Shown here piece by piece: positions 6,401-55,530 of a DNA stretch of 61,496 nt. A model generated the notes under the pieces. That model had not been told where the DNA came from and searched no databases. It saw nothing but the letters and a program-made list of their open reading frames with translations. Source of the DNA: a virus; the UHGV virus genome UHGV-0350099. One strand, 5' to 3'. How positions within the stretch are numbered: position 1 is the stretch's first letter; each line of letters starts with the position of its first letter. The position numbers and the translations under genes were made by a program.

Positions 6401-6922
6401 TTATTCTTCGAACAATTTTTCGATAGATTTTGTTGGATAGAACAAAGAACGATCGTTGTTACCAACCAGCTGGATAAAGCCCAAACTTTTATAAAACGCC
6501 CTGGCTTTATCGTTCAACGCCTCAACGAAAAGCCCATGAATGCCTACCGCAAGAGATGCATTGTACACAACACGCATTGCGTGAGTTACAAGCATTGAGC
6601 CAAGCCCCTGACCTTGAAGAGATTTGTCCAAAGCCAGTCTGCCTAAAGTGATACTTGGGACATTCCGATAAGGCACTTTCTTTTGCTGACTCTTTGAAGG
6701 TAAGGTTTCTTTCTCAAAGCAGCTGCCTGACAAAGTGTAATAACCTAATACCTTTGGTATTTCTTCTTTAGTGCAAAGCACATAAGCGCGAAGAATTTTT
6801 CCTTCATGCTGTCTTTTTAAGTGGTTGGTCAAAAATGCGTTTAGTGACTCTTCGCCGCAATCAAAACCGTTTAGATCATAATCGTTCTCTCCAGAGAAAA
6901 TCTCGATCGTCGTATTGCTCAC
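6401..6922 (-). CDS. GNAT-family acetyltransferase toxin (TacT-like)
   Basis: 173 aa; acetyl-CoA motif LGRLALDKSLQGQGLGSML; immediately downstream of a DUF1778-type small protein on same strand. Confidence 0.7.
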   Translation of the reverse strand: MSNTTIEIFSGENDYDLNGFDCGEESLNAFLTNHLKRQHEGKILRAYVLCTKEEIPKVLGYYTLSGSCFEKETLPSKSQQKKVPYRNVPSITLGRLALDKSLQGQGLGSMLVTHAMRVVYNASLAVGIHGLFVEALNDKARAFYKSLGFIQLVGNNDRSLFYPTKSIEKLFEE

Positions 6923-6929
6923 GAGTAAA

Positions 6930-7199
6930 TTACTCCATGCTTTTCAGACGATTGGCAGCTCGTTTCAGCTTGTCGTTCGGTGCCGGAGGATTGCTTATAG
7001 CATCCATAACCAGATTCCAGGACTCTTCACTTAGAACCAGTCTACGGTGTTGCTCTATCACCTTCACGGCACGTTCGGATGCACTGCTAACCATGAACTG
7101 GGTAATGCTCTGGTTAGACATTGCGGCAGCTTCCTCGATGATGCTTTTATCGTCATCGGTTAATCTCAAATCGATGCGCTGCTTTTTCAGTGCGGACAT
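6930..7199 (-). CDS. RHH/DUF1778-type antitoxin (TacA-like)
   Basis: 89 aa; RIDLRLTDDDKSIIEEAAAMSNQSITQFM pattern typical of DUF1778 antitoxins; 7-nt gap to GNAT gene. Confidence 0.7.
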   Translation of the reverse strand: MSALKKQRIDLRLTDDDKSIIEEAAAMSNQSITQFMVSSASERAVKVIEQHRRLVLSEESWNLVMDAISNPPAPNDKLKRAANRLKSME

Positions 7200-7209
7200 G
7201 TGTACCCCC

Positions 7210-7290
7210 TGATGGCCGGTGATGTAGGAAGGCCATCATTGCTCTCTATTTAAACTGAGTTTTCGACTCAAAGGTTATTTAACTGGGCTA
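7210..7290. promoter_or_regulatory. Inverted repeats upstream of the antitoxin gene (candidate autoregulatory operator)
   Basis: GATGGCC-N13-GGCCATC at 7210-7236 and perfect palindrome TGGGCTATAGCCCA near 7275-7290. Confidence 0.3.
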
Positions 7291-7467
7291 TAGCCCATTG
7301 CGTATGTGTCATCAAATTGTGTACGGCAATTTACCGTACTCGTAATATAGAGATGATTGTCACTTTTTTCAACAGACAAATGAAAACAGTTACTAGCAAT
7401 AGGCAATAACAACCTACTAAATAACCTTTACACCGCAGCCGTAGGCATTTAGGCTATATCACATATA

Positions 7468-7484
7468 AGAAAACAAGTTGTTTC
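7468..7484. promoter_or_regulatory. AAACAAGTTGTTT palindrome upstream of parA
   Basis: AGAAAACAAGTTGTTTC about 35 nt before parA start. Confidence 0.5.
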
Positions 7485-7518
7485 AGACGATAATTATATA
7501 CGCAAAGGGAACTCTCCA

Positions 7519-8187
7519 ATGACCAAGATCTTTGTGGTTGGCGGCACAAAGGGCGGGCCTGGCAAATCCACTGTTGCCCAGCAAATTGCCGTTTGCCTGA
7601 AAGTCAAAAAGAAGAAGAAGGTTTATATCACTGATATAGATATTCAGCGCACGACAACGAGCTGGTGTGAAGACCGTCGACAGAACGAAGACCTTGAGCT
7701 GATTCCTTTTGCATACGTTCAGGATGACATCATTAAGCACCTAAAATCGCTTCAGGGTAGAGCTGAGTATGTAGTGGTAGATGCTGGTGGCTTCGACTCC
7801 GAAATTCAGCGACAAGCGATGCTGATGGCTGACGTTATCATTATCCCGCTGCGTCCTAAGCGTCGTGATTTGAAATCTTTACGTGACATCGATCCTATTA
7901 TCGACAATGTTCGCAATGTAAACGATAAAGTGAAGGTCCGCGCGGTCATGAACCAGTGCCCGGCTTTGCCATCACAAGTGTCTCGCATTCTGGCGGCTAA
8001 AGAGATTGTTGAGACGTTTGGCATCGAGTCTGCGCCAGTCAATCTATATAACCGCAACGTCTATGATGATGCGGAAGAGTCTGGTCGTTCTATCTTTGAA
8101 ATGACCGGTAGCGAGCGCGACAAAAAGGCGGAAGCCGAGTTTGAAGAATTTGTAGATTATCTGTTGAGTCTGGAGGAAGAAGAATAA
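7519..8187 (+). CDS. parA: ParA/Soj-family partition ATPase (small, type Ib-like)
   Basis: Deviant Walker A GGTKGGPGKST at N-terminus; 222 aa without N-terminal HTH. Confidence 0.8.
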   Translation: MTKIFVVGGTKGGPGKSTVAQQIAVCLKVKKKKKVYITDIDIQRTTTSWCEDRRQNEDLELIPFAYVQDDIIKHLKSLQGRAEYVVVDAGGFDSEIQRQAMLMADVIIIPLRPKRRDLKSLRDIDPIIDNVRNVNDKVKVRAVMNQCPALPSQVSRILAAKEIVETFGIESAPVNLYNRNVYDDAEESGRSIFEMTGSERDKKAEAEFEEFVDYLLSLEEEE

Positions 8188-8546
8188 TGTCCATGAAAAT
8201 GGGTGACCTAGCAAAGCGCAAAGAGCCTGATGCACCGGCTAAGAACACAACTCCTTTGCGCCAACCAGTCAGACCACAGGGACGCCCGACTCGTGGCAAA
8301 GAGAAAATTAAAAGCCGCACGATGTCACTGGAAGACGAATACTTCGAACTGCTGGAGATGATGAAGTTCATCCCTCGCTTCGAGAAGTTCACCCGTTCTG
8401 ACGTGATTCGCGCAGCCATTTTCCATCTGGCAGAGAAGTCACCGCAGGAAATCGAGGACATCGTGAAACTTAACGAGGCGATCACTGCTGCCGATGTCAC
8501 GATGCGTACCGATGAAATTAAACGCGAGTTAATGAAGAAAGGTTGA
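8187..8546 (+). CDS. Small partition/centromere-binding protein partner (ParG/RHH-like)
   Basis: 119 aa; start overlaps parA stop (TAATG); basic N-terminus, C-terminal region compatible with ribbon-helix-helix. Confidence 0.45.
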   Translation: MSMKMGDLAKRKEPDAPAKNTTPLRQPVRPQGRPTRGKEKIKSRTMSLEDEYFELLEMMKFIPRFEKFTRSDVIRAAIFHLAEKSPQEIEDIVKLNEAITAADVTMRTDEIKRELMKKG

Positions 8547-8558
8547 TATAAATCTCTA

Positions 8559-8594
8559 AGGCTGGTCTGCATTGGACAGCCTTAGAAATATTTC
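8559..8594. terminator. Hairpin between convergent genes (bidirectional terminator candidate)
   Basis: TAAGGCTG-N12-CAGCCTTA inverted repeat between parB-like (+) and 8607-9680 (-). Confidence 0.35.
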
Positions 8595-8606
8595 GTTCTA
8601 TGAAAG

Positions 8607-9680
8607 CTATTCGTAGTTAAGCTCACCGAACAGACTGAACATCAAGTCACCATCCAAAATTTCAAAGGGCAACTCGACATACTCATCCTTATGTCTCGGA
8701 ATTGCGTTGCCGTCGTTAGGGGCATTCTTGGTATAACCTTTTACATGTTTACCGTTTTCTTTTGTATACGGCAGCACGACAATTCGACCGTGATTTTTTG
8801 AAATGATAGTTCCTTCTTTCCAGAGCGTATTGCCTCTTGAGGTGGTTTCGCTTTCGCTAGCAACTTTAACACTCCAACCTACCTGATTTTTGTCCTCAAA
8901 CCAGAAAACAAAGTTGCCAACAACCAGTACCTTTTGCCCATTCCTGAGAGCTTCATCCAGCATTCTTTTTACGCTGGCGAGTTGCAGTAACCGGTTAGCA
9001 CGCGGCAGAAGCATTGAGCGAATAGTCGCTTTTGTTTTTCCCCAATGTGCAGCGCCTGATAAACCAAAACCTCTGGCTATGCGTTCTTGGTAGCAGATCT
9101 TCGCTGTCTTAGCTTTGTTGTTATATGAACATTCCCAAGTGTTAGGAGCAACGAGTTGAAGTGAAACTTGGAATTTGGGAAGAAAAACAAAATGTAAGTA
9201 AGGCATCTCGCTTAGCACGTCAAAAAGGGGTTGACGCAAAGTTTCGTAATCTGGGTTAATTATTAACTCATTTAATGTCACTCGCGGATCGTTGGCGTGT
9301 GCCTTAATTGCTTCGTTGAGCATTATATGCTCTTCATCCATGAGACGTGATTTGGCTTTGAGTGCTTTGTCAACTTTCAAACGCAATGACTTCTTTTGAA
9401 ACATAGATAGAGGAAGTTTTTCAATGTCAAAGCTCACGTTTTTATTCAGCTCTAATGCCGCTTTTCTTGCTTCAGGATAGTTATCGTAGTCGTCATCAAA
9501 AGCGTGGTTTGGCATACCACGATCAACATATCGCCGATACCAAGCAAGGGTTCCATCATTACGGAGTTTCAGACAGAACATCGACCATTTATTCCGTTCA
9601 TATTTAGGCTGAGGCCAAAAAGCCAGTTCGGGAAGGCCATATCCTGGAAGTCTATTCATGCGCATGGTGACAATATCCAC
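8607..9680 (-). CDS. Hypothetical protein in AT-rich accessory segment
   Basis: 357-aa ORF on minus strand; lower GC than flanking replication genes; no motif recognised. Confidence 0.5.
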   Translation of the reverse strand: MDIVTMRMNRLPGYGLPELAFWPQPKYERNKWSMFCLKLRNDGTLAWYRRYVDRGMPNHAFDDDYDNYPEARKAALELNKNVSFDIEKLPLSMFQKKSLRLKVDKALKAKSRLMDEEHIMLNEAIKAHANDPRVTLNELIINPDYETLRQPLFDVLSEMPYLHFVFLPKFQVSLQLVAPNTWECSYNNKAKTAKICYQERIARGFGLSGAAHWGKTKATIRSMLLPRANRLLQLASVKRMLDEALRNGQKVLVVGNFVFWFEDKNQVGWSVKVASESETTSRGNTLWKEGTIISKNHGRIVVLPYTKENGKHVKGYTKNAPNDGNAIPRHKDEYVELPFEILDGDLMFSLFGELNYE

Positions 9681-9922: not shown

Positions 9923-9944
9923 ATAAGTAAGTAGCTACCTACCA
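9923..9944. promoter_or_regulatory. Palindromic intergenic motif GATAAGTAAGTAGCTACCTACC
   Basis: Member of dispersed TAAGTA/TACTTA family. Confidence 0.4.
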
Positions 9945-12079: not shown

Positions 12080-12161
12080 AAAATAAGCGTGGAGAACACC
12101 TCCACGCTTGATTCATTGGTGAAACAACTTTTCTTTTGCCAAACCACAAAAGAAAAACACA

Positions 12162-14194: not shown

Positions 14195-14249
14195 TCTCTC
14201 CGCGCGTCGTTTTTTACGCAAATAACGATAGGTAAGTACAAGATTATTT

Positions 14250-16051: not shown

Positions 16052-16263
16052 TCGTATTAAGTAAAAGGGAGAAAGAAACGCTTCATGAAATCAGTAAGTG
16101 GCCGGAGTTCCCTGAGTACTGGAAGCCTAAAACGCGAGCTAAGTTAGAGCGTTTAGGGTTGGTTGCAAACGTTTCTGAAACGTGGTGCTCGGCCAACTAC
16201 CAGTTAACTGATAAAGGGAAAGTATTGCTACAGCAATTAGTAGAATCAGGAGTGTTAAAATGA
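16048..16263 (+). CDS. Hypothetical small protein
   Basis: 71-aa ORF translationally coupled to ligase (overlapping stop/start). Confidence 0.4.
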   Translation: MIVLSKREKETLHEISKWPEFPEYWKPKTRAKLERLGLVANVSETWCSANYQLTDKGKVLLQQLVESGVLK

Positions 16264-16708: not shown

Positions 16709-16730
16709 GATAAGTATTTACTTACTTATC
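16709..16730. promoter_or_regulatory. Palindromic intergenic motif GATAAGTATTTACTTACTTATC (dispersed family)
   Basis: Near-perfect palindrome of TAAGTA/TACTTA half-sites; one of about 15 similar intergenic sites. Confidence 0.5.
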
Positions 16731-19155: not shown

Positions 19156-20259
19156 ATGAAAAATAGCTTTGACAGAGCACGCGCTGCGGAGAACACCTCA
19201 AAAGAGGCGATTGAGTATCTCGAAAGAGCATCTCAAATGCAGGCCGTTATGATCTCGCAGGTTAGCAATGACATGAGATTCTCGGACGCATTCATGTTAT
19301 TCACTCGCTTATCTCTGCTGATAACCAGACGTCGGCCAGAGATCGCTGTTCATTGTATTTTGATACATGTTTTTCCGCACATTGCCGATGTAAAAGTAAG
19401 TGATATTAATAGGTTCATGGTGAACCAACTGGTCAACCCACTAATACTGGATGGCAAAATTGTTATGGGCCGCCGCGTTTTCTCTCTGATGAAGCAGTTC
19501 CTTAGCTGGTGCGCCTTCCAGGGGATGATAGACGTGTCACCGTTAAACGATATGTCACTTAACAAAGTTGCCGGTGGCGCAAAGCCCACGCCCCGCGAGC
19601 GGAAGCTGACTGACGCAGAGGTATGGGTGTTCTGGAATATATGGGACTACTTCAATGTGTGCGCTGGTACAAAATGGGCGGCCAGACTGTGTCTTGTATC
19701 AGCAAGACGACCTGACGAAGTACTGCGGGCTAAAAAAAGTGAGTTCAATCTTAAGCGTGGAGTTTGGAATCAAGGCAAGAGAAACAAGTCAGCACGTGAG
19801 CATTCGCTGCCTTTAAGCACATTAATGCGCACATGCATTGAAGAGTTGTTCGAATACGGTAAAGACAGCCAGTGGCTCGTGCCTTCGAATAAAAAAATCG
19901 GGAAAGACCTTCCTATGTCTAAAGTGGCAATAGCCCAGGCATTACGTCGTATTCTGGAACGACCAGAACTGATGGAGCTTGAGCCATTTACACCCCGAGA
20001 TTTGCGCCGTACTGCGCGTAGTTACTTCCCAGCATTAGGCATAAGCCAGGAGGTATCACGCAAAATCATGAACCACAGTCTTGAGGGGATAGATCGGGTC
20101 TACGACCGGCACGATTATATGGACGAGATGCGAGACGCCTTAGAAAGTTTCTCGACGTACATCGCATCAATCGTAGAGCAACCGGATTTAGACGAAATTG
20201 ACCACAAATTTAAGGGAGATCGTCTATCAACAGAGCTTATTCGTGTAAATTTTTCATAG
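19156..20259 (+). CDS. int: Tyrosine recombinase / phage integrase family protein
   Basis: 367 aa; C-terminal catalytic-domain pattern ARRPDEV...HSLPL...RDLRRTARS...HSLEGIDRVYDRHDY consistent with R-H-R-Y integrase fold. Confidence 0.7.
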   Translation: MKNSFDRARAAENTSKEAIEYLERASQMQAVMISQVSNDMRFSDAFMLFTRLSLLITRRRPEIAVHCILIHVFPHIADVKVSDINRFMVNQLVNPLILDGKIVMGRRVFSLMKQFLSWCAFQGMIDVSPLNDMSLNKVAGGAKPTPRERKLTDAEVWVFWNIWDYFNVCAGTKWAARLCLVSARRPDEVLRAKKSEFNLKRGVWNQGKRNKSAREHSLPLSTLMRTCIEELFEYGKDSQWLVPSNKKIGKDLPMSKVAIAQALRRILERPELMELEPFTPRDLRRTARSYFPALGISQEVSRKIMNHSLEGIDRVYDRHDYMDEMRDALESFSTYIASIVEQPDLDEIDHKFKGDRLSTELIRVNFS

Positions 20260-20640
20260 AGACTTTATGGCCTCAACAACCTTTTGTGATGCGCCTTTCT
20301 CTTTACCGAATCGCTCGTTATATGCAGCAAGAACCTGTTTTTCGTCCTCGTTAAGAGGAGCAGTGCCTTCTTTGTATAAAAATGCTGCGAGTTCGGGTTG
20401 GCGTTCTTCCAGCACCATCATCATAAGACGACTTGGCTCAATACCCAGCGCCAGCGCCAACGGACGAACCTTATCGATAGGCAAAGGAATTTTGCCACTT
20501 TTAATTAAAGAAAGGTTGTTGGCATTTTTGTAACCAATAAGTCTGGCTATTTGGGCCTGACTCATAGGTGAGGATTCAATCAACCCTGCGATAAAAGCAG
20601 CGTAGCGACTTTCTATAAATTCAATCTTGTTATCAGACAT
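20254..20640 (-). CDS. XRE-family HTH transcriptional regulator (candidate phage repressor)
   Basis: 128 aa; N-terminal HTH MSQAQIARLIGYKNANNLSLIKSGK; convergent with integrase; palindrome GGTAAGTGCTTACC in its upstream region. Confidence 0.6.
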   Translation of the reverse strand: MSDNKIEFIESRYAAFIAGLIESSPMSQAQIARLIGYKNANNLSLIKSGKIPLPIDKVRPLALALGIEPSRLMMMVLEERQPELAAFLYKEGTAPLNEDEKQVLAAYNERFGKEKGASQKVVEAIKSL

Positions 20641-20671
20641 GGTTACAACCTTTGCGCGTTCAATTCTCTCT

Positions 20672-20685
20672 GGTAAGTGCTTACC
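20672..20685. promoter_or_regulatory. Perfect palindrome GGTAAGTGCTTACC in repressor upstream region (candidate operator)
   Basis: Same core as dispersed GGTAAGT..ACTTA motifs found before many replication genes. Confidence 0.45.
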
Positions 20686-20891
20686 GATATTACATCAAAG
20701 GTTAGGGTTGTAAAGCTATTATCATTTTTTTCGATAGGCACTTAAAAGACCGGTTAAAGGCCATTGCACGGAGAAAAATTAGCCCAAAATAGGTAAGAAA
20801 ATCAACTTGCATATGATATGAATGTATTCAGTATTGATACAAATTTTAGTAGTATTCCTTACCATAGTATAAGTTAGAATGGATTGATTGA

Positions 20892-24822: not shown

Positions 24823-27800
24823 ATGAAGGCACTGATGGTTCGAACTGACTTCTCACTTGGGGAGTCGGCTCTAAAAGCAGAAAACGCGGTGAAGATTGCC
24901 AGAGAAGCTGGCTACACCGCTGTAATTTCAGCAGATAGCATGAATATTGCGAGCGTTATTCCACTACAACGTGCCGCTGGTGACGACATGGCGGTTATTT
25001 GTGGTGTGAAACTAAACATTGTTGATGATCCCACATACGAGCACCGGGCTAAACTTGCTAAAGAATCTATGAGATGTATGGAATCATTAGAGCGGGGACG
25101 TAACTACTCGTTTACCGCTCTAATTAAAAATGAGCAAGGATATCGCGACATCTGCGAACTAATGACGGTGGCCAACACACGAGAACAGTTCTACTTTGTA
25201 CCGCGTCTCTCGCTCGAACAGTTGGTTTCTACATATGCCAAAGGCAACATCATCCTGCTTACTTCCGACATCGGTAGCGTGTTCCAACGCAACGATTTTG
25301 CAAAAATCATAAGCACACTGATTACAGCGGGTGGAAAAGACAACTTCTATAGTGTGGTTTATCCGCACCCTACCCCATTCTACGACCAGATTAACGTCCG
25401 AGCGATGAAAGTAGCCAGCGCACTGAAAATAGAGCCAGTAGCGTTCTATCCCGCTTATTACGAATCGATCGACGATGCAGACATTAAAGACATTGCGCAC
25501 ATGGTTACGAACAACATAAAAATCGACCAGCCGCATCGTCTGCGTATCCCCCACCAGCGAGATAACGCCATCAATGGTCGTCGCCATCTCCTTGAGGCGC
25601 TTAAAGCCTTCTCCGTTCGCATGGATGTGCCGGTAACAGCTGCAATGGCCTCAACAACGCAGGACTCCATTATCGATGCCTGCACATGGCGCTGGCATGA
25701 ATTGCCACCAGCACTGCCCAAGATGGCAGACGACGAACCTGCAACGCTGATGAAACTGGCTGTTGCAGGGCTGCGTAAACGTCTTACCACAAAAGAGTTT
25801 GGATACACACCACCTGCTTCTGAGAACAGGGTTTATGTTGAGCGGCTAAAGTACGAAATGAACACGCTGACTCGCCTGGGATTTTGTGGTTACTTCCTGA
25901 TGGTACGCGATCTGATGAATCACAGCCGTGAAACTGGCATTCCTGTCGGGCCTGGTCGTGGTTCCTCTGCCGGTTCTCTGGTGGCGTGGTGCATAGGCAT
26001 AACCAACGTCGACCCAATCCGTCACGGTCTTCTGTTTGAGCGTTTCATCAACCCTGAGCGTCTCGACTTGCCGGATGCGGACTTGGACTTCAGCCAGGCA
26101 CGTCGCCATGAGGTGATCGAGTATCTGAATGAACGCTACGGCGAAGATTACGTTGCAGGCATTCCGAACTTCACCTATCTGGGCGCGGCATCTGCACTAC
26201 GTGACACCGCTCGTATTTATGGTGTGGAGTCCGCAGATATGGCGGTATCAAAAGAACTGAAGAACGTCGAGGATGATAGCCTTCCATTGGAAGAGCTGCG
26301 CGAACAACTGGCAAGTCTCGACAAATACGCAACAAAATATCCTGATGCATTCAATGCAGCCTGCAAGTTACAAAGCCTTATGCGTGGCTTTGGTAGACAT
26401 GCGGCAGGGATGATTGTAGCAGGTGTTCCTCTGACAGAACGTACACCGGTTGAGCGCCGTGGTGACGCGCGTTGTATCGCATTTGACAAGCGTTACTGCG
26501 AGGCTATGGGCCTAATTAAGCTGGACGTGCTTGGCCTGGCAACTCTCGATTTGCTCGATAGTGCAAAACGCTACATAAAAGAGAACACAGGTGAAGATAT
26601 CAATCTTGATGCCATTTCTCTTGAAGATCGCAAGGTGCTGGATGGTTTTGCTGCAGGGTATACACAGGGCGTATTCCAGCTGGAGTCCGGCCCCATGCGC
26701 AAGCTGCTTAAAGATCTAGGCGGTGGCATTGAGCCAATGAGCTTTAAAACCGTTGTCGCCACGACCGCACTCTTCCGACCTGGCCCGATCCAATCCGGCA
26801 TGTTGGACGACTATGTTTCTGTCGCCAAAGGCTTTATGACGCCGGAATCATTACACCCCGTTCTTGATGAACTTACCGCGGAAACAAATGGCGTGATTCT
26901 CTATCAGGAACAGACGATGAACGCGACTCGATTGCTTGCCGGCTTCACAATGGCTGAAGCTGACGGTGTGCGTTCCGCAATCGGTAAGAAGAACATGGAA
27001 AAAATGAAGAGCATGGGCGAGAAGTTCATCGTTCAGGCTCAAGCTGGCTGGATAGACGTTGAGCTGGAAGATGGCACTACACAGCGCATTCACCGTGCGG
27101 AACATTTTAAATGCGAAGACGGAACTCTGAAAACTGTCGAAGAGGCACTTGAGCACGGCGCAAAACTACCTATAAACGCAGTACGCGTTACAGCGTCACA
27201 TCCAGGGCTATCAGAGATGAAAGCGAAGGAGATCTGGACCGCATTCGAAAAAAATGGTGCCTACCAGTTCAATAAATCACACTCCGTTGCTTATTCTTTA
27301 ATCAGTTATCAGTCTATGTGGCTAAAGACGCACTACCCTGCTGAGTTCTTCGCAGCTGCGCTCACCATTCTGGGCGAGGATAAGCATCAGGGGCTGGTGA
27401 AGGATGCGCTGACCTATGGCATTCGCGTATTGCCACCAGACGTTAATGTGTCATCTAACCGAATTGAGATCCGCACACTCGAAGACGGCAGTCAGGCACT
27501 GTATGCGCCATTCTCTGCTGTGAAAGGCTGTTCTGAAAATGGTTGTCAGGCAATTATGCGTGCGCGTGAGAAAGTTGGTGGCAAATTCGAGTCAGTGGCA
27601 CAATTCGATGAAGCGGTCGAGAAGCGTGCATGTAACAGTCGTGTACGCGAGTCGCTTCATAAAGTAGGGGCTTTTGCGTCAATTGAGCCAGGCAGTCTGC
27701 CAGCAACTGATCCTGAACGACTGCGCGACCAGGCTGAGCTGATGGGCAATCTCATCATTGACGCTGTTAAAGCATCACGTCCGTTCGAAATGAATCCTAA

Positions 27801-33143: not shown

Positions 33144-35483
33144 ATGGCAAAAGGAAAATCCGCACTGGCACTTGCTCTGAAAAAGAAAATCGGTAGCAAC
33201 GACGAAATTCAGAAAGTAACTCATTGGATTGATACAGGCTTTCCACCGTTAAACAAAGCTATTTCTGGTCGTTACGATGGCGGCTTCCCATGTGGTCGTA
33301 TCGTCGAAGTATTCGGTCCACCAAGCGCGGGGAAATGTGTTACCGCAGACACCATGCTGCTGACGGAGCGTGGAATGGTAACAGTGAAAGAGTTGTTTGA
33401 GATTGAAGGGTACAAAGCGACATGCACTACTCGCGATGTAGAGCATAACGTTGGACTCATCAATGAAAATGGCGTGATAGAGAAGACCTCACACCTGACA
33501 TGGAACAACCGTCGCAAATTCAAGCGTATTAAGCTGGCATCAGGCGGTTATATCGAGGCTACGTTCCGTCACCCAATCCGTGTGGTTGACGACTTAGGTA
33601 ATGTCGTCTGGCGACATGCTGAAAAAATCAGTGTAGGCGACACGATTCCTTCAATGGTTGGCACACATCAATTCGGCGATCAGCACCTGGATGCCAATAT
33701 CGCAAAACTGATGGGCTATTTAATTGCTGACGGATACGTGGCCTCTGAAAATTCAGTGAATTTTTCTAACACAGATCCTTTCATCAAGGATGAGTACTAC
33801 CGCCTCATTTCGCTGGTATCAGACAAGATGCCAGTTGCGAGAAAACATAACGGCTCGGAAGACCATGTGCTGTTTAGCAAAGAGGTGCGTTCGCTGCTTT
33901 TTAAAGAATATGGTCTGGAGTATGAGAAAGCTGCTGGCAAGCAGGTTCCGTTGAGTGTGCGTCGCGCCAATAGCGAGGCTCAAATTGCATTCCTTCGCGG
34001 CTACTTTGAGCTGGAATGCCACGTCAATGATGGTCGCTGCATTGAGGTTGTGAGCGCGAGTGGGCTGCTGCTACAGCAAATTCGCCTCATGCTCCTGAAT
34101 CTGGGGATTACGTCAACTATCTCTGAAAAACACGTCGCGGGTTATGAAAATACATATTACCGGCTGTCATTCAGTGGCTCTAATTACGACCTTTTTCTGT
34201 CAACGATTGGTTTCGAATCTCCGGCACGTTTATCAGTGGCAACCAAACGGGACATTGGTTTTGACCGCACTTACTCAGGCTATGTTCCGCACATCAGCGG
34301 CTTAGTGAAATCACTCTACGAGTCGCTCACCAAGACCACCCGTGAAGACTACGCTCTGGTAGACCACGTTATTGGCCGCGGCGATCGTGTCGGAATAGAC
34401 AAACTGCGAGAAATCTATGTCTCCTTCATTGGCAGAAAGAATCGTTTTAACGAGCATCTGTTTGCACAACTGGCAGCGGTAATTGGCTCTAACTTGTTCT
34501 ACGACGAAGTCGTGGCTATTGAGGAAGGTGAAGCACCAACGTTCGACGTAGCGATGCCGGAAACACACTCTTTCTGGTCTAACGGGATTATCAGCCACAA
34601 CACATTCCTTGCAACAGCAGCGATGATCTCCGCTCAAAAACAAGATGGTCTGGCGGTATTCCTCGATCATGAAAACAGTTTTGACGTTGGCCTGGCTGTA
34701 GCCAATGGCCTGAACGCAGATGAGGATGACGGTCAGTGGGTATACAAGCAGCCAGATACCTTCGAAGACTCTGTAGAGTTGATCGGCACAATACTTAAAT
34801 TGGTTCGTGATGAAGAGCTTATCCCCGAATCAGCACCTATCTGTATCGTGGCTGACTCTCTTGCGTCTATGGTTCCGAACTCCAAAGCCGAGAAGTTCGA
34901 AAAGATGGCTGAAGGCACAGCCAAAGACAAAGATCAGCTAAACATGAACGACAATACGGCACTGGCTCGTGCGACGAGTGCGAACTTCCCTACTCTGGCT
35001 TTGTGGGCACGCAAATACAACGCCTGCATCATCTTCTTGAATCAGGTTCGCACAAAAATCGGTGTAATGTTTGGCGACCCTACTACGTCGCCAGGTGGAG
35101 ATTCACCGAAGTTTTACGCTTCTGTGCGTATCCGTCTTGGTGCATCGGTGATGAAGGATGGTAAAGAGAAGATCGGCCAGGACGTAGGCGCAGAATGCAT
35201 CAAAAACAAAGTTGCACCACCGTATGGCAAATGCACCTGGAAATTCTACTTCGATCCTACTCGTGGCCTCGACGTTATCGAATCGCTCGTCGAGTACATG
35301 CTGGAAGAAGGATACCTGCCAAAGAACGCCAGCGGGCGAGTTGAAATTGGTGACAAGAAATACACCAAATCGCAGATCGTCGAGATGTATCGGGAGAAGC
35401 CACTGGCTGAAATCATTGCGGCTTTGCAGGCAATCGACGACCGAAGAGCAAAAGACAACCCCACCGAGTCAGTAGAAGAGTAA
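33144..35483 (+). CDS. recA: RecA-like recombinase interrupted by an intein
   Basis: Exteins: GRIVEVFGPPSAGK|...|TFLATAAM, AVFLDHENSFD, CIVADSLASMVP, IFLNQVRTKIGVMFGDPTTSPGGDSPKFYASVRIRLG match RecA core motifs. Confidence 0.85.
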   Translation: MAKGKSALALALKKKIGSNDEIQKVTHWIDTGFPPLNKAISGRYDGGFPCGRIVEVFGPPSAGKCVTADTMLLTERGMVTVKELFEIEGYKATCTTRDVEHNVGLINENGVIEKTSHLTWNNRRKFKRIKLASGGYIEATFRHPIRVVDDLGNVVWRHAEKISVGDTIPSMVGTHQFGDQHLDANIAKLMGYLIADGYVASENSVNFSNTDPFIKDEYYRLISLVSDKMPVARKHNGSEDHVLFSKEVRSLLFKEYGLEYEKAAGKQVPLSVRRANSEAQIAFLRGYFELECHVNDGRCIEVVSASGLLLQQIRLMLLNLGITSTISEKHVAGYENTYYRLSFSGSNYDLFLSTIGFESPARLSVATKRDIGFDRTYSGYVPHISGLVKSLYESLTKTTREDYALVDHVIGRGDRVGIDKLREIYVSFIGRKNRFNEHLFAQLAAVIGSNLFYDEVVAIEEGEAPTFDVAMPETHSFWSNGIISHNTFLATAAMISAQKQDGLAVFLDHENSFDVGLAVANGLNADEDDGQWVYKQPDTFEDSVELIGTILKLVRDEELIPESAPICIVADSLASMVPNSKAEKFEKMAEGTAKDKDQLNMNDNTALARATSANFPTLALWARKYNACIIFLNQVRTKIGVMFGDPTTSPGGDSPKFYASVRIRLGASVMKDGKEKIGQDVGAECIKNKVAPPYGKCTWKFYFDPTRGLDVIESLVEYMLEEGYLPKNASGRVEIGDKKYTKSQIVEMYREKPLAEIIAALQAIDDRRAKDNPTESVEE
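33336..34601 (+). mobile_element. Intein (422 aa) with LAGLIDADG homing endonuclease, inserted in the RecA P-loop
   Basis: Begins with Cys right after GPPSAGK, ends HN followed by Thr; LAGLIDADG-like LMGYLIADGYV and FLRGYFELECHV. Confidence 0.8.
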
Positions 35484-35487
35484 ACAC

Positions 35488-35513
35488 AAGGCGTCCACAG
35501 GACGCCTTTTTAT
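35488..35513 (+). terminator. Rho-independent terminator (AGGCGTCC/GGACGCCT family)
   Basis: AAGGCGTCC-ACA-GGACGCCTT followed by TTTATCT. Confidence 0.6.
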
Positions 35514-35524
35514 CTCTTGAAAAT

Positions 35525-35544
35525 ATATAAGTACTTACTTATAT
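35525..35544. promoter_or_regulatory. Palindromic intergenic motif ATATAAGTACTTACTTATAT
   Basis: Member of dispersed TAAGTA/TACTTA family. Confidence 0.45.
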
Positions 35545-35573
35545 TTTCGCATAACAACCACATAGGAAAACAC

Positions 35574-35774
35574 ATGATCAAAATCTATCTATTGGCAGTA
35601 GCCACAGGCCTTTCAGTGGCTCTCATCTACGGTTTACTGGTTCCGTCGCTGATTTCTACCAAGAGTGATTTAGCCGTCATGTTTGGAGTTATCGTTGGTT
35701 TTGGTGCTCCTGTAATCGGTCTTATTGCTGGTCGTAAGTTTATCAACTCATTAATCAAAGCAAAGGGGAAATAA
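35574..35774 (+). CDS. Small membrane protein (two predicted TM helices)
   Basis: Start at ATG 35574 after GGAAAACAC; hydrophobic segments LLAVATGLSVALIYGLLV and VMFGVIVGFGAPVIGLIAG. Confidence 0.4.
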   Translation: MIKIYLLAVATGLSVALIYGLLVPSLISTKSDLAVMFGVIVGFGAPVIGLIAGRKFINSLIKAKGK

Positions 35775-35777
35775 GTA

Positions 35778-36608
35778 ATGAAGAAAGGTTTACTTGCAGT
35801 TGCTCTGGCGGCTATTTGCACAATGGGTCTTACTGGCTGTGATCGCGTGGAGCCTGGATACGTTGGCATCAAAGTAAACAAATTAGGTGAAGACAAAGGG
35901 ATTGGTGAAGTGGTTGGCGTTGGTCGCCAATGGACAGGTCTTAACACCGAACTTTACGTATTCCCGACCTTCAAACAAATGAAGACCTACGACGAGCCGT
36001 TCACATTCCAGATGAGTGACGGTACTGCTATTGGTCACAAAATTGGCGTTGCGTATCTGGTTAATCGTGACAAGGTAACGACGGTGTTCCAGACCTATCG
36101 CAAAGGCGTAGACGATATCACCGAATCAGATCTGCGTCAGAAAATTGCCGACTCTCTAAACCGTTTGGCCAGCCGTATGACCACTGACTCATTTATCGAC
36201 GGTGGTAAGGCACAATTGCTGGACAACGCACTGAAAGATATTCAGAAAGAGATGTCTCCGGTTGGTATTGAGGTACTGAGCCTGTCATGGGTTGGAAAGC
36301 CTGATTACCCAAAAACTGTCATTGAATCTATTAACGCCAAAGTAACGGCTAACCAGCGTACTCTGCAACGTCAGCAGGAAGTTGAACAACGTAAAGCTGA
36401 GGCGAATATGCTACGTGAACAGGCTAATGGTGAAGCTGATGCTATCCGTGCTCGTGCGCAAGCAGAAGCAGACGCCATTCGTCTGCGCGGTGAAGCTCTG
36501 CGTCAAAACCCGAACGTTATGGAACTGGAAGCCATCAATAAATGGAATGGCCAGTTACCGCAGTACATGACTCAAGGGGCTAACACTCCTTTCATTACAG
36601 TGAAATAA
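35778..36608 (+). CDS. SPFH/band-7 (prohibitin/stomatin-like) domain lipoprotein
   Basis: Signal peptide with lipobox LTGC; SPFH-like core followed by Ala/Glu/Arg-rich coiled coil (EADAIRARAQAEADAIRLRGEA). Confidence 0.65.
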   Translation: MKKGLLAVALAAICTMGLTGCDRVEPGYVGIKVNKLGEDKGIGEVVGVGRQWTGLNTELYVFPTFKQMKTYDEPFTFQMSDGTAIGHKIGVAYLVNRDKVTTVFQTYRKGVDDITESDLRQKIADSLNRLASRMTTDSFIDGGKAQLLDNALKDIQKEMSPVGIEVLSLSWVGKPDYPKTVIESINAKVTANQRTLQRQQEVEQRKAEANMLREQANGEADAIRARAQAEADAIRLRGEALRQNPNVMELEAINKWNGQLPQYMTQGANTPFITVK

Positions 36609-38708: not shown

Positions 38709-39764
38709 CTATTTGCGAGTCTTTGCCTTGCGCAACTCTTCGAGAAGCGCCAGTTCTTCTTTACTCAACATGACCATTTTGCCTTCTTTTTCGTCAGGCA
38801 CAACGTCGATAATGTCATCTTGATTCTCATCTGGGAGGCTATATTCCGTCTCATCATTATCGATTTTTGTTGATATTTGTGCCTGGCGTAACTTTGGCCG
38901 CCTATAGTGGATGACGAAGTAGACCGAGTTTCCGCGCTTAACTTCCGTGTAATCGAGATATCCTATCTCTCGCAGCTGTTCCATAGCCTTTCTTACCGTC
39001 GCATTCTGAGTAATAGTGCGACTTGTCAGATTAAGTCTGGCGCGTAAACGGGCTAGTGATATTGGTGCCGGATCAGGCGGCAAACTTTCAATAAAAGTAT
39101 AAAGCGCCTGAGCGGATTCTTTTCTTGAGAGTTCGTTTATAGCCCGGAGTTGCAGAAGAACCTTTTTGTCGAACTGGTAGAGTTCGAAAATCTTGGGATC
39201 TGCTTTCAGTTCGACCGTATCGTGCTTGACACTATATTTTGCCGTTTGCACAAGATGCGTTACGTAAAACTCATCAGAGCCTTTGCTACGGAACGAGATG
39301 GTATTTGTGGCAATACGGCTTAGCGAACTGTCCAGGCGTTTGCGTAACTTCGCTGATGACCTGGCGGTCGGAATGCCACACAGCCTTACAAACTCAACGA
39401 ACGGCAACGTGACAGTATCGCCAACGACCTTGTGTTTGGCAAACGCGTGGATTATTCCCACCCACGTTTTAAAGTCGTTATCCATATCAAGCCGAAGGCC
39501 AGAGATCCTTATGTCTTCGTACCCTTCGGCTTTTGCCAGAGACAGCTGTTTGAGTTCAGCAGAGGCATCCATAGAGACCATTTGCCCCTTTCTTCCTCTG
39601 GATGTCGATTTCAGCGTCGGAACGAAGAGGCCCAGACGCATCAAAGCAACAGGCTGAACAGTGTTATTAGTGTTAGGAACCAACGTAACAACTTCGCCTG
39701 TCTTTTTATCTGTTTCTGAAAATGCTTCAACGATCGCTATGTTTTTATTGCCGTTTTCGCTCAT
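38709..39764 (-). CDS. repA: Iteron-type plasmid replication initiator RepA (P1 RepA / RepFIB-like)
   Basis: 351 aa flanked by iteron arrays; [47 protein letters not shown] segments recalled as matching P1-type RepA (no search run). Confidence 0.8.
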
Positions 39765-39804
39765 TCCAAATGTCTCTTGTTATTCGACGGCTTTGGTGGC
39801 CTTT

Positions 39805-39930
39805 GCTGATTACAGTGGATAGTAGCACTCATCACAGCGGTTATCCTACCGTCTATAGTGGTTTTTCTCCTCTCTATAGTGGTTGCTTTGCTCCCTATAG
39901 TGGATTATTCGCTCTCTATAGTGGATATCG
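39805..39930. repeat. Origin iterons (6 direct repeats, about 21-bp spacing)
   Basis: YTCTATAGTGGWT cores at 39811, 39833, 39853, 39875, 39896, 39917. Confidence 0.7.
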
Positions 39931-39964
39931 ATCATGTCTGAAGGCAGATGGCACAACGGTTTGA

Positions 39965-40050
39965 GGTGGGCGGGGATCTTATTGGGTCTTTATGGGTCTC
40001 TTTGGTTCTCTTTGTGATCTGAATTACTGGATCGGGCCTGTGGATAAAAA
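39965..40050. promoter_or_regulatory. Degenerate GATC-heptamer region plus DnaA-box-like TGTGGATAA
   Basis: GGGATCTTATT/GGGTCTTTAT/GGGTCTCTTT/GTGATCT repeats; TGTGGATAA at 40039-40047. Confidence 0.45.
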
Positions 40051-40204
40051 TCAGAGGATTTCAAGAACAGGTAACTCTACTCTTCTGTGGATATTTAAGG
40101 ACATAAGAATCATGACTAAGAGTAGAGTTTAAAATATATCTATGTATATCAGTATGTTAATGAAGAATTAAGTCATTAAGTTATCCATAAAAGACAATGT
40201 GCTC

Positions 40205-40310
40205 TACTCTCTACAGTGGATATATACAGCTCTCCAGAGTGGTTGTTTTACTCTTCATAGCGGTTATTCAGCTCTCTACAGAGGTTTCTTTGCTCTCCAT
40301 AGTGGATGGC
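40205..40310. repeat. Second iteron set (5 repeats), part of duplicated origin module
   Basis: CTCTACAGTGG, CTCCAGAGTGG, CTTCATAGCGG, CTCTACAGAGG, CTCCATAGTGG at 21-22-bp spacing. Confidence 0.6.
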
Positions 40311-40344
40311 AACACCCTTTCAGACCAGTAACCGCAACGGCTAG

Positions 40345-40420
40345 AGGCGATCGGGGATCTCTTTGGATCTTCTATTTGATCTTACTTGGGATCTCTTATT
40401 TGGATCTATCCAGTGGATAA
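40345..40420. promoter_or_regulatory. Cluster of six GATC sites at 11-13-bp spacing plus DnaA-box-like CAGTGGATAA
   Basis: CGATCGGGGATCTCTTTGGATCTTCTATTTGATCTTACTTGGGATCTCTTATTTGGATCTATCCAGTGGATAA. Confidence 0.55.
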
Positions 40421-55509: not shown

Positions 55510-55530
55510 ATAGGTATTTACTTACCTATC
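55510..55530. promoter_or_regulatory. Palindromic intergenic motif ATAGGTATTTACTTACCTATC
   Basis: Member of dispersed motif family, upstream of methyltransferase gene. Confidence 0.45.

Follow-up and report, generated by a model that had tools for sequence, protein, structure and literature searches.

The closest described counterparts of the locus considered here are type Ib partition systems such as ParF-ParG-parH of TP228, in which a small Walker-type ParA without a helix-turn-helix (HTH) region, the 206-amino-acid (aa) ParF, is followed directly by the gene for a small partner that combines a flexible basic N-terminal tail with a short DNA-binding core. In ParG, the flexible tail accompanies a ribbon-helix-helix (RHH) fold. 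A cassette of comparable build lies in the virus genome UHGV-0350099, a stretch of 61,496 nucleotides (nt) that was analysed at full length and is referred to below as the window. On balance, positions 7410-8549 of its + strand probably serve an SSU5-family phage-plasmid as its operon for active partition, with the build of the ParF/ParG class of type Ib systems, a reading that derives from sequence comparison. The ATPase, with 222 aa inside the size range of about 190-310 aa of type Ib ParAs, has the expected features, and the operon has the expected architecture, with a partner gene directly downstream whose product is predicted to have the same two-part build, whereas the upstream array of short boxes is absent; in its place, the leader has one conserved block, present in single copy, together with a palindrome that recurs genome-wide. 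The partner also differs from ParG in its length (119 versus 76 aa), in two extra C-terminal helices that appear in an AlphaFold2 (AF2) model, and in having no detectable sequence similarity to it.

Other partition systems offer partial parallels. As in delta-omega of pSM19035 and IncC-KorB of RK2, the same short motif, here a putative protein site, stands at several promoters, one of them in the par leader; unlike in KorB and omega, however, one clade of relatives has the partner family but no palindrome; KorB, moreover, is an HTH ParB, and omega binds heptad arrays. With the type Ia systems ParA-ParB-parS of P1 and SopAB-sopC of N15 and F, the locus would share its proposed biological role in a plasmid prophage, but its ParA lacks the N-terminal HTH region of about 100 aa and its partner has neither a ParB/Srx domain nor an HTH. 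The orthologous pairs are SSU5_033/034 and CYRAN_28/29, with 87% and 95.5% DNA identity, respectively. SSU5_033 is already annotated as 'ParA-like partition protein', while the SSU5 partner is listed as a 'hypothetical protein' with a shorter start and its family is uncharacterised. The literature yielded no functional study of partition in SSU5, pHCM2 or Cyrano, and no paper was found that treats the parA-partner pair or its centromere as a partition system.

Nucleotide identity marks the window as an SSU5-like phage-plasmid: in this region it amounts to 95-98% with the Escherichia phages Cyrano/pLF82, CMS-2020a and PhiR41_1, to 87% with Salmonella phage SSU5 and to about 81% with Klebsiella phage-plasmids. 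Cyrano is the same element as pLF82, plasmid NC_011917 of E. coli LF82 (Cyrano paper). The gene order of the locus runs from tail fibre through holin, endolysin and spanins to variable cargo, the parA-partner pair, further variable cargo, and a DnaB-like helicase with a primase.

The gene parA occupies 7519..8187 on the + strand (ATG at 7519, TAA at 8185-8187) and encodes a Walker-type partition ATPase. The original prediction had delimited the cassette as 7468-8546, and both open reading frames (ORFs) are present there; 7468, however, is not a start codon, since it lies within the leader, 51 nt 5' of the first start codon at 7519, with an in-frame stop at about 7450. The translation, read directly, contains the deviant Walker A box GGTKGGPGKST at residues 8-18, in line with the consensus KGGxxGK[ST] and with the signature lysine K11 and also K16. 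Because this box starts at residue 8, too few residues precede it to form an HTH, and no further Pfam domain is present, so that the absence of an HTH claimed earlier for this ParA holds. The Pfam matches are AAA_31, MipZ (second-best), CbiA, ParA and VirC1; the best NCBIfam model is ParA_partition (2.3e-33, residues 9-213), and PHROG 164, 'ParA-like partition protein', is matched at 2e-51. The closest solved structures, both aligned over nearly the full length, are ParF of TP228 (4dzz, 3.1e-10, residues 9-199) and the ParA 5u1g (about 3e-10). Taken together, the Walker A box and the Pfam, NCBIfam, PHROG and PDB matches place the ATPase, as a divergent member, among the small ParAs of ParF size.

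The partner gene, at 8187..8546 on the + strand (ATG at 8187, TGA at 8544-8546), encodes a 119-aa basic protein that is a putative centromere-binding adaptor. The stop codon of parA overlaps its start codon (TAATG), and a GGAGG Shine-Dalgarno sequence lies at 8172-8176, 10 nt 5' of the start; the protein has an isoelectric point of 9.6, rising to 11.4 for residues 1-47, and the translational coupling of ParA to a basic 119-aa protein proposed earlier is therefore upheld. The partner matches no Pfam family and belongs to PHROG 5111, whose function is unknown. Its family is small, with 25 clusters in 5.8 billion proteins, and an exhaustive profile search with a hidden Markov model among 1.84 billion representatives returned 18 proteins, all of the same narrow family and none an annotated distant relative. 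No ParB or HTH family match was found. The Cyrano record labels the protein (CYRAN_29) as 'RelE/ParE putative toxin'; this label was rejected because no RelE/ParE model in Pfam or NCBIfam matched any of 13 partner members at E <= 10.

In the AF2 model, residues 1-46 of the partner are disordered and helices span residues 48-59, 70-82, 86-97 and 101-118. Clades down to 26% identity share nine invariant residues, distributed over three motifs: L8 falls in the N-terminal MGDLAK[RK] (MGDLAKR in the window), where K10 is nearly invariant as well; I41, R44, S47 and E49 fall in I[KR]SRT.S.E.E[YF]; and R70, D72, R75 and L81 fall in [ST]RSDV.RAA. From the family alignments, the basic disordered tail would reach to about residue 45, and the segment IKSRTMSLE is a putative beta-strand. 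This pattern of conservation, with a strand, a first helix and a second helix beginning with S/T, would be that of an RHH protein, an indication that is weakly positive; compared with the RHH pattern, the loop between the helices is unusually long and two extra helices follow. The NCBIfam model aCcr1, an RHH transcription factor (PMC9976878), matches 9 of the 13 partner members at E of about 2e-4, with 21 bits against a cut-off of 60. Pfam RHH_1 matches 5 of the 13 below threshold (E 0.005-0.17), the alignment pairing partner residues 49-85 with positions 3-36 of the 39-position model, the full RHH in register. Comparison of the partner profile by hhalign with ParG, omega, CopG, Arc, Mnt, MetJ and ParD gave nothing significant, CopG being aligned in register but with a probability of 2%, and nothing significant emerged with TacA of the window or with the RHH-like partner of an Aeromonas relative. 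On balance, the putative RHH fold is regarded as likely.

The two genes are inherited together. In every related lineage examined, parA is followed by a partner-family gene, always after the tail-fibre and lysis genes of an SSU5-like element, and the pairing is therefore not due to chance. Partner identity to the window is 50-100% in the Escherichia/Salmonella/Klebsiella/Enterobacter group, 40% in lineage L012, 31% in L013-15, 29-34% in the Morganella/Xenorhabdus/Photorhabdus group (L011, L023-L026) and 26% in L016; the pair is kept even where the partner is only 26-40% identical (L011, L012, L013-15, L016, L021-L026). The cassette occurs in 774 PLSDB plasmids, nearly all of which come from Enterobacteriaceae and measure about 105-120 kb, and RefSeq annotates it as 'AAA family ATPase | hypothetical protein'. 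Across these plasmids, the blastn matches span query positions 1-15 to about 1135-1140 of the module, and an alignment of seven genomes places its limits, comprising leader, parA and partner gene, at 7410..8549 (+), outside which only 0-3% of the columns are invariant. The flanks differ among relatives: upstream there is TacT/TacA in the window and other genes in SSU5 and PhiR41_1, and the downstream neighbour varies too. Since unrelated DNA stands on both sides of 7410-8549, the pair and its leader of about 110 bp behave as one module.

The leader is more strictly conserved than the genes that it precedes. Positions 7424-7486 are essentially invariant in seven phages, whereas the coding DNA there is only about 80% identical. 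This block contains a predicted sigma-70 promoter, P_parA, at 7427..7455 (+), with the -35 element TTTACA at 7427-7432, a 17-nt spacer and the -10 element TAGGCT at 7450-7455, from which transcription would start near 7462. The same TTTACA-N17-TAGGCT is found in L021 and L012, and counterparts occur in L013 (TTTACA-N17-TAGTAT) and L022 (TTGTTT-N17-TAGGCT), in all cases with different spacers. A consensus promoter scan did not call P_parA, because its -10 element matches at only 3 of 6 positions, and the prediction comes from conservation across clades only.

Overlapping the spacer and the -10 element, at 7442..7454 (+), there is a TAGGC-ATT-TAGGC tandem with an 8-bp period, a candidate for a par-specific operator or centromere core. 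The tandem is invariant in the seven phages, recurs as TAGGC-N3-TAGGC in L021, shifted by 8 bp, and is single-copy in the complete genome of the Klebsiella phage-plasmid pJN2-26; no second copy of the par-specific leader block was found in the window or in that genome. The operator and the centromere could be one par-specific site within 7424-7470, an assignment that is favoured, with the TAGGC tandem as the best candidate. An intragenic centromere was also considered: the 9-mer CGATGTCAC occurs in three copies (7883, 8320 and 8492), but it varies at synonymous positions in relatives and was rejected because it is not conserved.

Transcription of the operon in the plasmid state is documented for a near-identical cassette. 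RNA sequencing of E. coli LF82 carrying Cyrano, whose cassette is 95.5% identical to that of the window, grown in LB, gave values of 49.8 for ParA and 89.1 for the partner, with a local background of about 10, and of 54.6 for the next gene, CYRAN_30, and 95.8 for the putative repressor, whose level is comparable to that of the par genes (PMC9928086, Table 1 and S1 Table). The par operon is thus transcribed in the lysogenic plasmid state of Cyrano, and its being on in that state is as expected of a maintenance function.

In the mechanism proposed for this operon, the promoter TTTACA-17-TAGGCT would, in the lysogenic plasmid state, give rise to one transcript for both genes, with coupled translation. 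On binding ATP, the 222-aa ParA would form dimers that attach to the nucleoid without sequence specificity. The helical core of the partner, probably an RHH dimer extended at its C-terminus by two helices, would recognise a site in the leader of its own operon and would thereby also autoregulate it. The disordered N-terminal tail of the partner, rich in K and R and carrying MGDLAKR, may contact ParA and stimulate its ATPase activity, so that the plasmid prophage would be pulled along a ParA gradient and stabilised.

Several observations weigh against this assignment. For the ATPase, the ParA_partition score of 115 bits lies below the NCBIfam equivalog cut-off of 180, and RefSeq names the protein 'AAA family ATPase' or even 'MipZ'. 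Close relatives also possess, at loci beyond the window, genes for a MinD-like ATPase and for two proteins with a ParB N-terminal (ParB-N) domain. For the partner, the AF2 monomer is of low confidence (mean predicted local distance difference test score of 66, with 67-88 in the helical part) and contains no strand; none of the RHH models reaches its threshold over the 13 partner members, and fold searches returned nothing. The earlier description of the partner as RHH-like is consequently retained in part, through the sub-threshold aCcr1 and RHH_1 matches. Finally, no iterated repeat array comparable to parH, parC or the omega sites is present in 7200-7520 or 8547-8606, in agreement with the original prediction, which had noted no obvious centromere repeats; the leader has one tandem and one palindrome.

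This palindrome gives rise to the alternative that fares best. At 7471..7483 (+), at about +9 to +21 of the predicted parA transcript, lies the 13-bp palindrome AAACAAGTTGTTT, a member of the class AAACAAnTTGTTT, which occurs in the window at 7471, 10707, 21171, 36671, 48402, 58633 and 59362, as five perfect and two one-mismatch copies, where 0.005 and 0.2 would be expected. All of these copies are preceded by A.TA[AG]GA and lie 19-35 nt 5' of an ATG on the + strand. The genes behind them are parA and those for a DnaB-like helicase, a CobT-like protein, a DUF7238 protein, the beta subunit of ribonucleotide reductase (RNR), a TerB-like protein and one unknown protein. The complete pJN2-26 genome contains 17 such sites, and L013 has the palindrome both at parA and at the helicase gene. 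Its arms are conserved while its central position varies freely, as is characteristic of sites bound by dimeric proteins. The set looks like an undescribed promoter or operator class of SSU5-like elements.

Precedents exist for a partition adaptor that reads dispersed sites. KorB of RK2 acts at 12 dispersed 13-bp O_B palindromes with a free central base, omega of pSM19035 is both partition adaptor and regulator, and N15 has four dispersed sopC-like sites, palindromic centromeres located in phage gene regions. By analogy, the partner could be a global regulator of the KorB/omega kind that binds AAACAAnTTGTTT, the dispersed copies serving as operators that silence replication and early genes in the lysogen and, as in N15, as multiple centromeres. 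The partner would then found an undescribed centromere-binding family on the dispersed AAACAAnTTGTTT sites, and the adaptor would double as lysogenic silencer. Both proposals are regarded as rather unlikely, although several observations speak for them: the palindrome stands in the par leader and at no fewer than six other promoters, far above chance, with the conserved arms and variable centre of a dimeric protein site; the partner is among the few Cyrano genes clearly expressed in the lysogen, where other genes behind the palindrome are at or near background (helicase 21, CobT-like 7.8, TciA-like 7.0); and the control region of the HTH repressor, 20641-20891, has no copy of AAACAAnTTGTTT and carries GGTAAGTGCTTACC instead. 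Were they true, promoters of replication and nucleotide metabolism would be silenced by the adaptor, the operators would be scattered centromeres, and the logic of KorB/omega would be joined to that of N15 in a siphovirus plasmid-prophage.

The distribution of the palindrome among relatives nevertheless speaks against such a role of the partner. In the Morganella/Xenorhabdus/Photorhabdus clade, the strand of the partner that would read the DNA, I[KR]SRT.S.E.E[YF], is unchanged, but this clade has no palindrome in its 20-kb loci, which include the parA and helicase promoters, and L012, whose partner is 40% identical, has none upstream of parA. Across conditions, moreover, parA transcription tracks the repressor and integrase genes and not the helicase gene, and the fixed place of the palindrome just 3' of the -10-like A.TA[AG]GA suggests a promoter-class element that is read by another factor. 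It is accordingly favoured that the palindrome belongs to a separate phage regulon and is not par-specific. A nucleotide search for a relative that has the helicase promoter and lacks the cassette returned essentially the same set of plasmids, and a distant Aeromonas relative with a different pair, a ParA and an 83-aa protein, and with no AAACAAnTTGTTT palindromes, does not discriminate between the palindrome-binding readings.

A second alternative assigns ParA to other partners, namely the tandem pair of ParB-N-domain proteins encoded some 30 kb away next to the packaging genes and outside the window, leaving the 119-aa protein as a transcription factor or as a protein unrelated to segregation. 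Positions 105144-106492 of Cyrano indeed contain genes annotated as 'ParB protein' and 'ParB-like nuclease domain protein', the same pair is found in pJN2-26 at 34817-36165, and 'parB' has served as a marker of the SSU5 group in a typing study. A small ParA that lacks an HTH, however, normally works with a small protein encoded immediately downstream, as in type Ib systems. The ParB-like genes are unlinked to parA and have genes for a UvsW-like helicase, for ABC-type ATPases and for the terminase as neighbours, whereas the 119-aa gene is coupled to parA, co-inherited with it in every clade and exchanged with it as one unit, for which reasons the ParB-N-domain proteins are improbable partners and this alternative has little chance of being correct. 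As a separate observation, the MinD-like ATPase of Cyrano (OV696614, 89738-90838) is expressed 9-fold above background in the lysogen.

That the pair does not serve partition at all is very improbable. In this reading, the two proteins would have a toxin-antitoxin or a defence function, or the ATPase would be one of the MipZ/MinD type with a positioning role in the host. The toxin label in the Cyrano record, the name 'MipZ' in some RefSeq records and the second-best Pfam rank of MipZ speak for it. Against it, the partner has no RelE/ParE family match in Pfam or NCBIfam, the best specific matches of the ATPase are partition ParAs, and the cassette is universal in the low-copy plasmids of this family, some 770 in number and about 110 kb in size, which fits a maintenance role.

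The type Ib operon reading has consequences beyond the window. SSU5-like phage-plasmids have a wide distribution among clinical Enterobacteriaceae, and papers report resistance genes in the family. Their inheritance at single or low copy number probably depends on the par operon, and defining its adaptor and site would explain the stability and incompatibility of the family and provide a target for curing. That the par promoter has its palindrome in common with those of the helicase, CobT-like and RNR-beta genes and with others suggests a regulatory circuit not described before, and this shared regulon is the one feature that could lift the cassette above the routine.

The replicon of the element lies in the same window as parA. 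A Rep3-type RepA initiator with WH1/WH2 domains is encoded at 38709..39764 (-), and 21-bp iterons stand on both sides of repA, at 39852-39928 and 40200-40305. Because the Rep3 initiator and the iterons are present, the original prediction of an extrachromosomal prophage with a RepA replicon is correct, as is also indicated by the 95-98% identity to Cyrano and PhiR41_1. The replicon region, 38709..40410, contains in addition a 10-bp repeat at 39982-40014 and GATC-containing repeats of 12-13 bp at 40355-40407; an iteron-type origin under Dam/SeqA control is likely.

Directly upstream of the par module, a GNAT toxin of the TacT/KacT type (6401..6922, -) and a TacA antitoxin (6930..7199, -; Pfam TacA1, 3.5e-26) form a pair that is kept in Cyrano and has other genes in its place in SSU5, PhiR41_1 and pJN2-26. 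It is strongly expressed in the LF82 lysogen, with values of 344 and 592, and adds a further maintenance function to the element at a hot spot for cargo insertion. Downstream, an inverted repeat at 8555..8586, between the partner gene and the convergent ORF 8607..9680, can form a stable hairpin (-20 kcal/mol, z = -3.6; none of 200 shuffles folds as well), which is a probable bidirectional terminator closing the operon. The convergent ORF (- strand) encodes 357 aa, has no Pfam match and belongs to PHROG 22329, of unknown function. Its position holds different genes in Cyrano, SSU5 and pJN2-26, and both flanks of the par module are therefore variable cargo sites. In L013 (contig DAGKNZ010000016.1, Enterobacteriaceae), a 456-bp intergenic insert follows the partner gene at 6442-6897; it has inverted repeats of about 55 bp at its ends and an internal hairpin, and looks like a miniature inverted-repeat transposable element.

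The distant Aeromonas relative mentioned above (L028) is the SSU5-like phage-plasmid pNY4622-IMP of Aeromonas caviae. At 26105-27114, a different position, it encodes an unrelated 253-aa ParA together with the 83-aa protein, which has a textbook RHH-like sequence pattern. Since this element carries an unrelated ParA pair, partition modules appear to be exchangeable within the phage-plasmid supergroup.

Besides AAACAAnTTGTTT, the window contains other dispersed motifs. Copies of ATAAGTAAGTA-N2-TACCTAYC, a 16-bp sequence with imperfect palindromic symmetry (GTAAGTA-N2-TACYTAC), are located near gene starts on either strand, at 9923 and 30738 (+) and at 16719, 35532 and 41284 (-), with one-mismatch copies at 14228, 23329, 28330 and 37475 (+) and at 55519 (-). 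The related palindrome GGTAAGTGCTTACC is situated at 20672-20685, in the divergent region beside the gene of an HTH 'putative repressor' (20254..20640), and the ATAAGTAAGTA-type set is a candidate for the operators of the prophage repressor. The half-motif TACCTAYCA is also found just upstream of the parA -35 element in SSU5 and PhiR41_1. The 14-mer AATGATTCCATACA is present in five copies, at 16259, 17271, 19025/19044 (an inverted pair) and 25075; a gap of about 110 nt separates the inverted pair from the integrase gene (19156..20259) downstream of it, one copy is inside the gene for the Pol III alpha subunit, and the set could possibly represent recombinase or regulator sites. Lastly, GGAAAAACACATG, composed of a Shine-Dalgarno sequence, a fixed spacer and ATG, is common to at least six genes, at 12152, 24815, 37172, 41398, 48436 and 59384.

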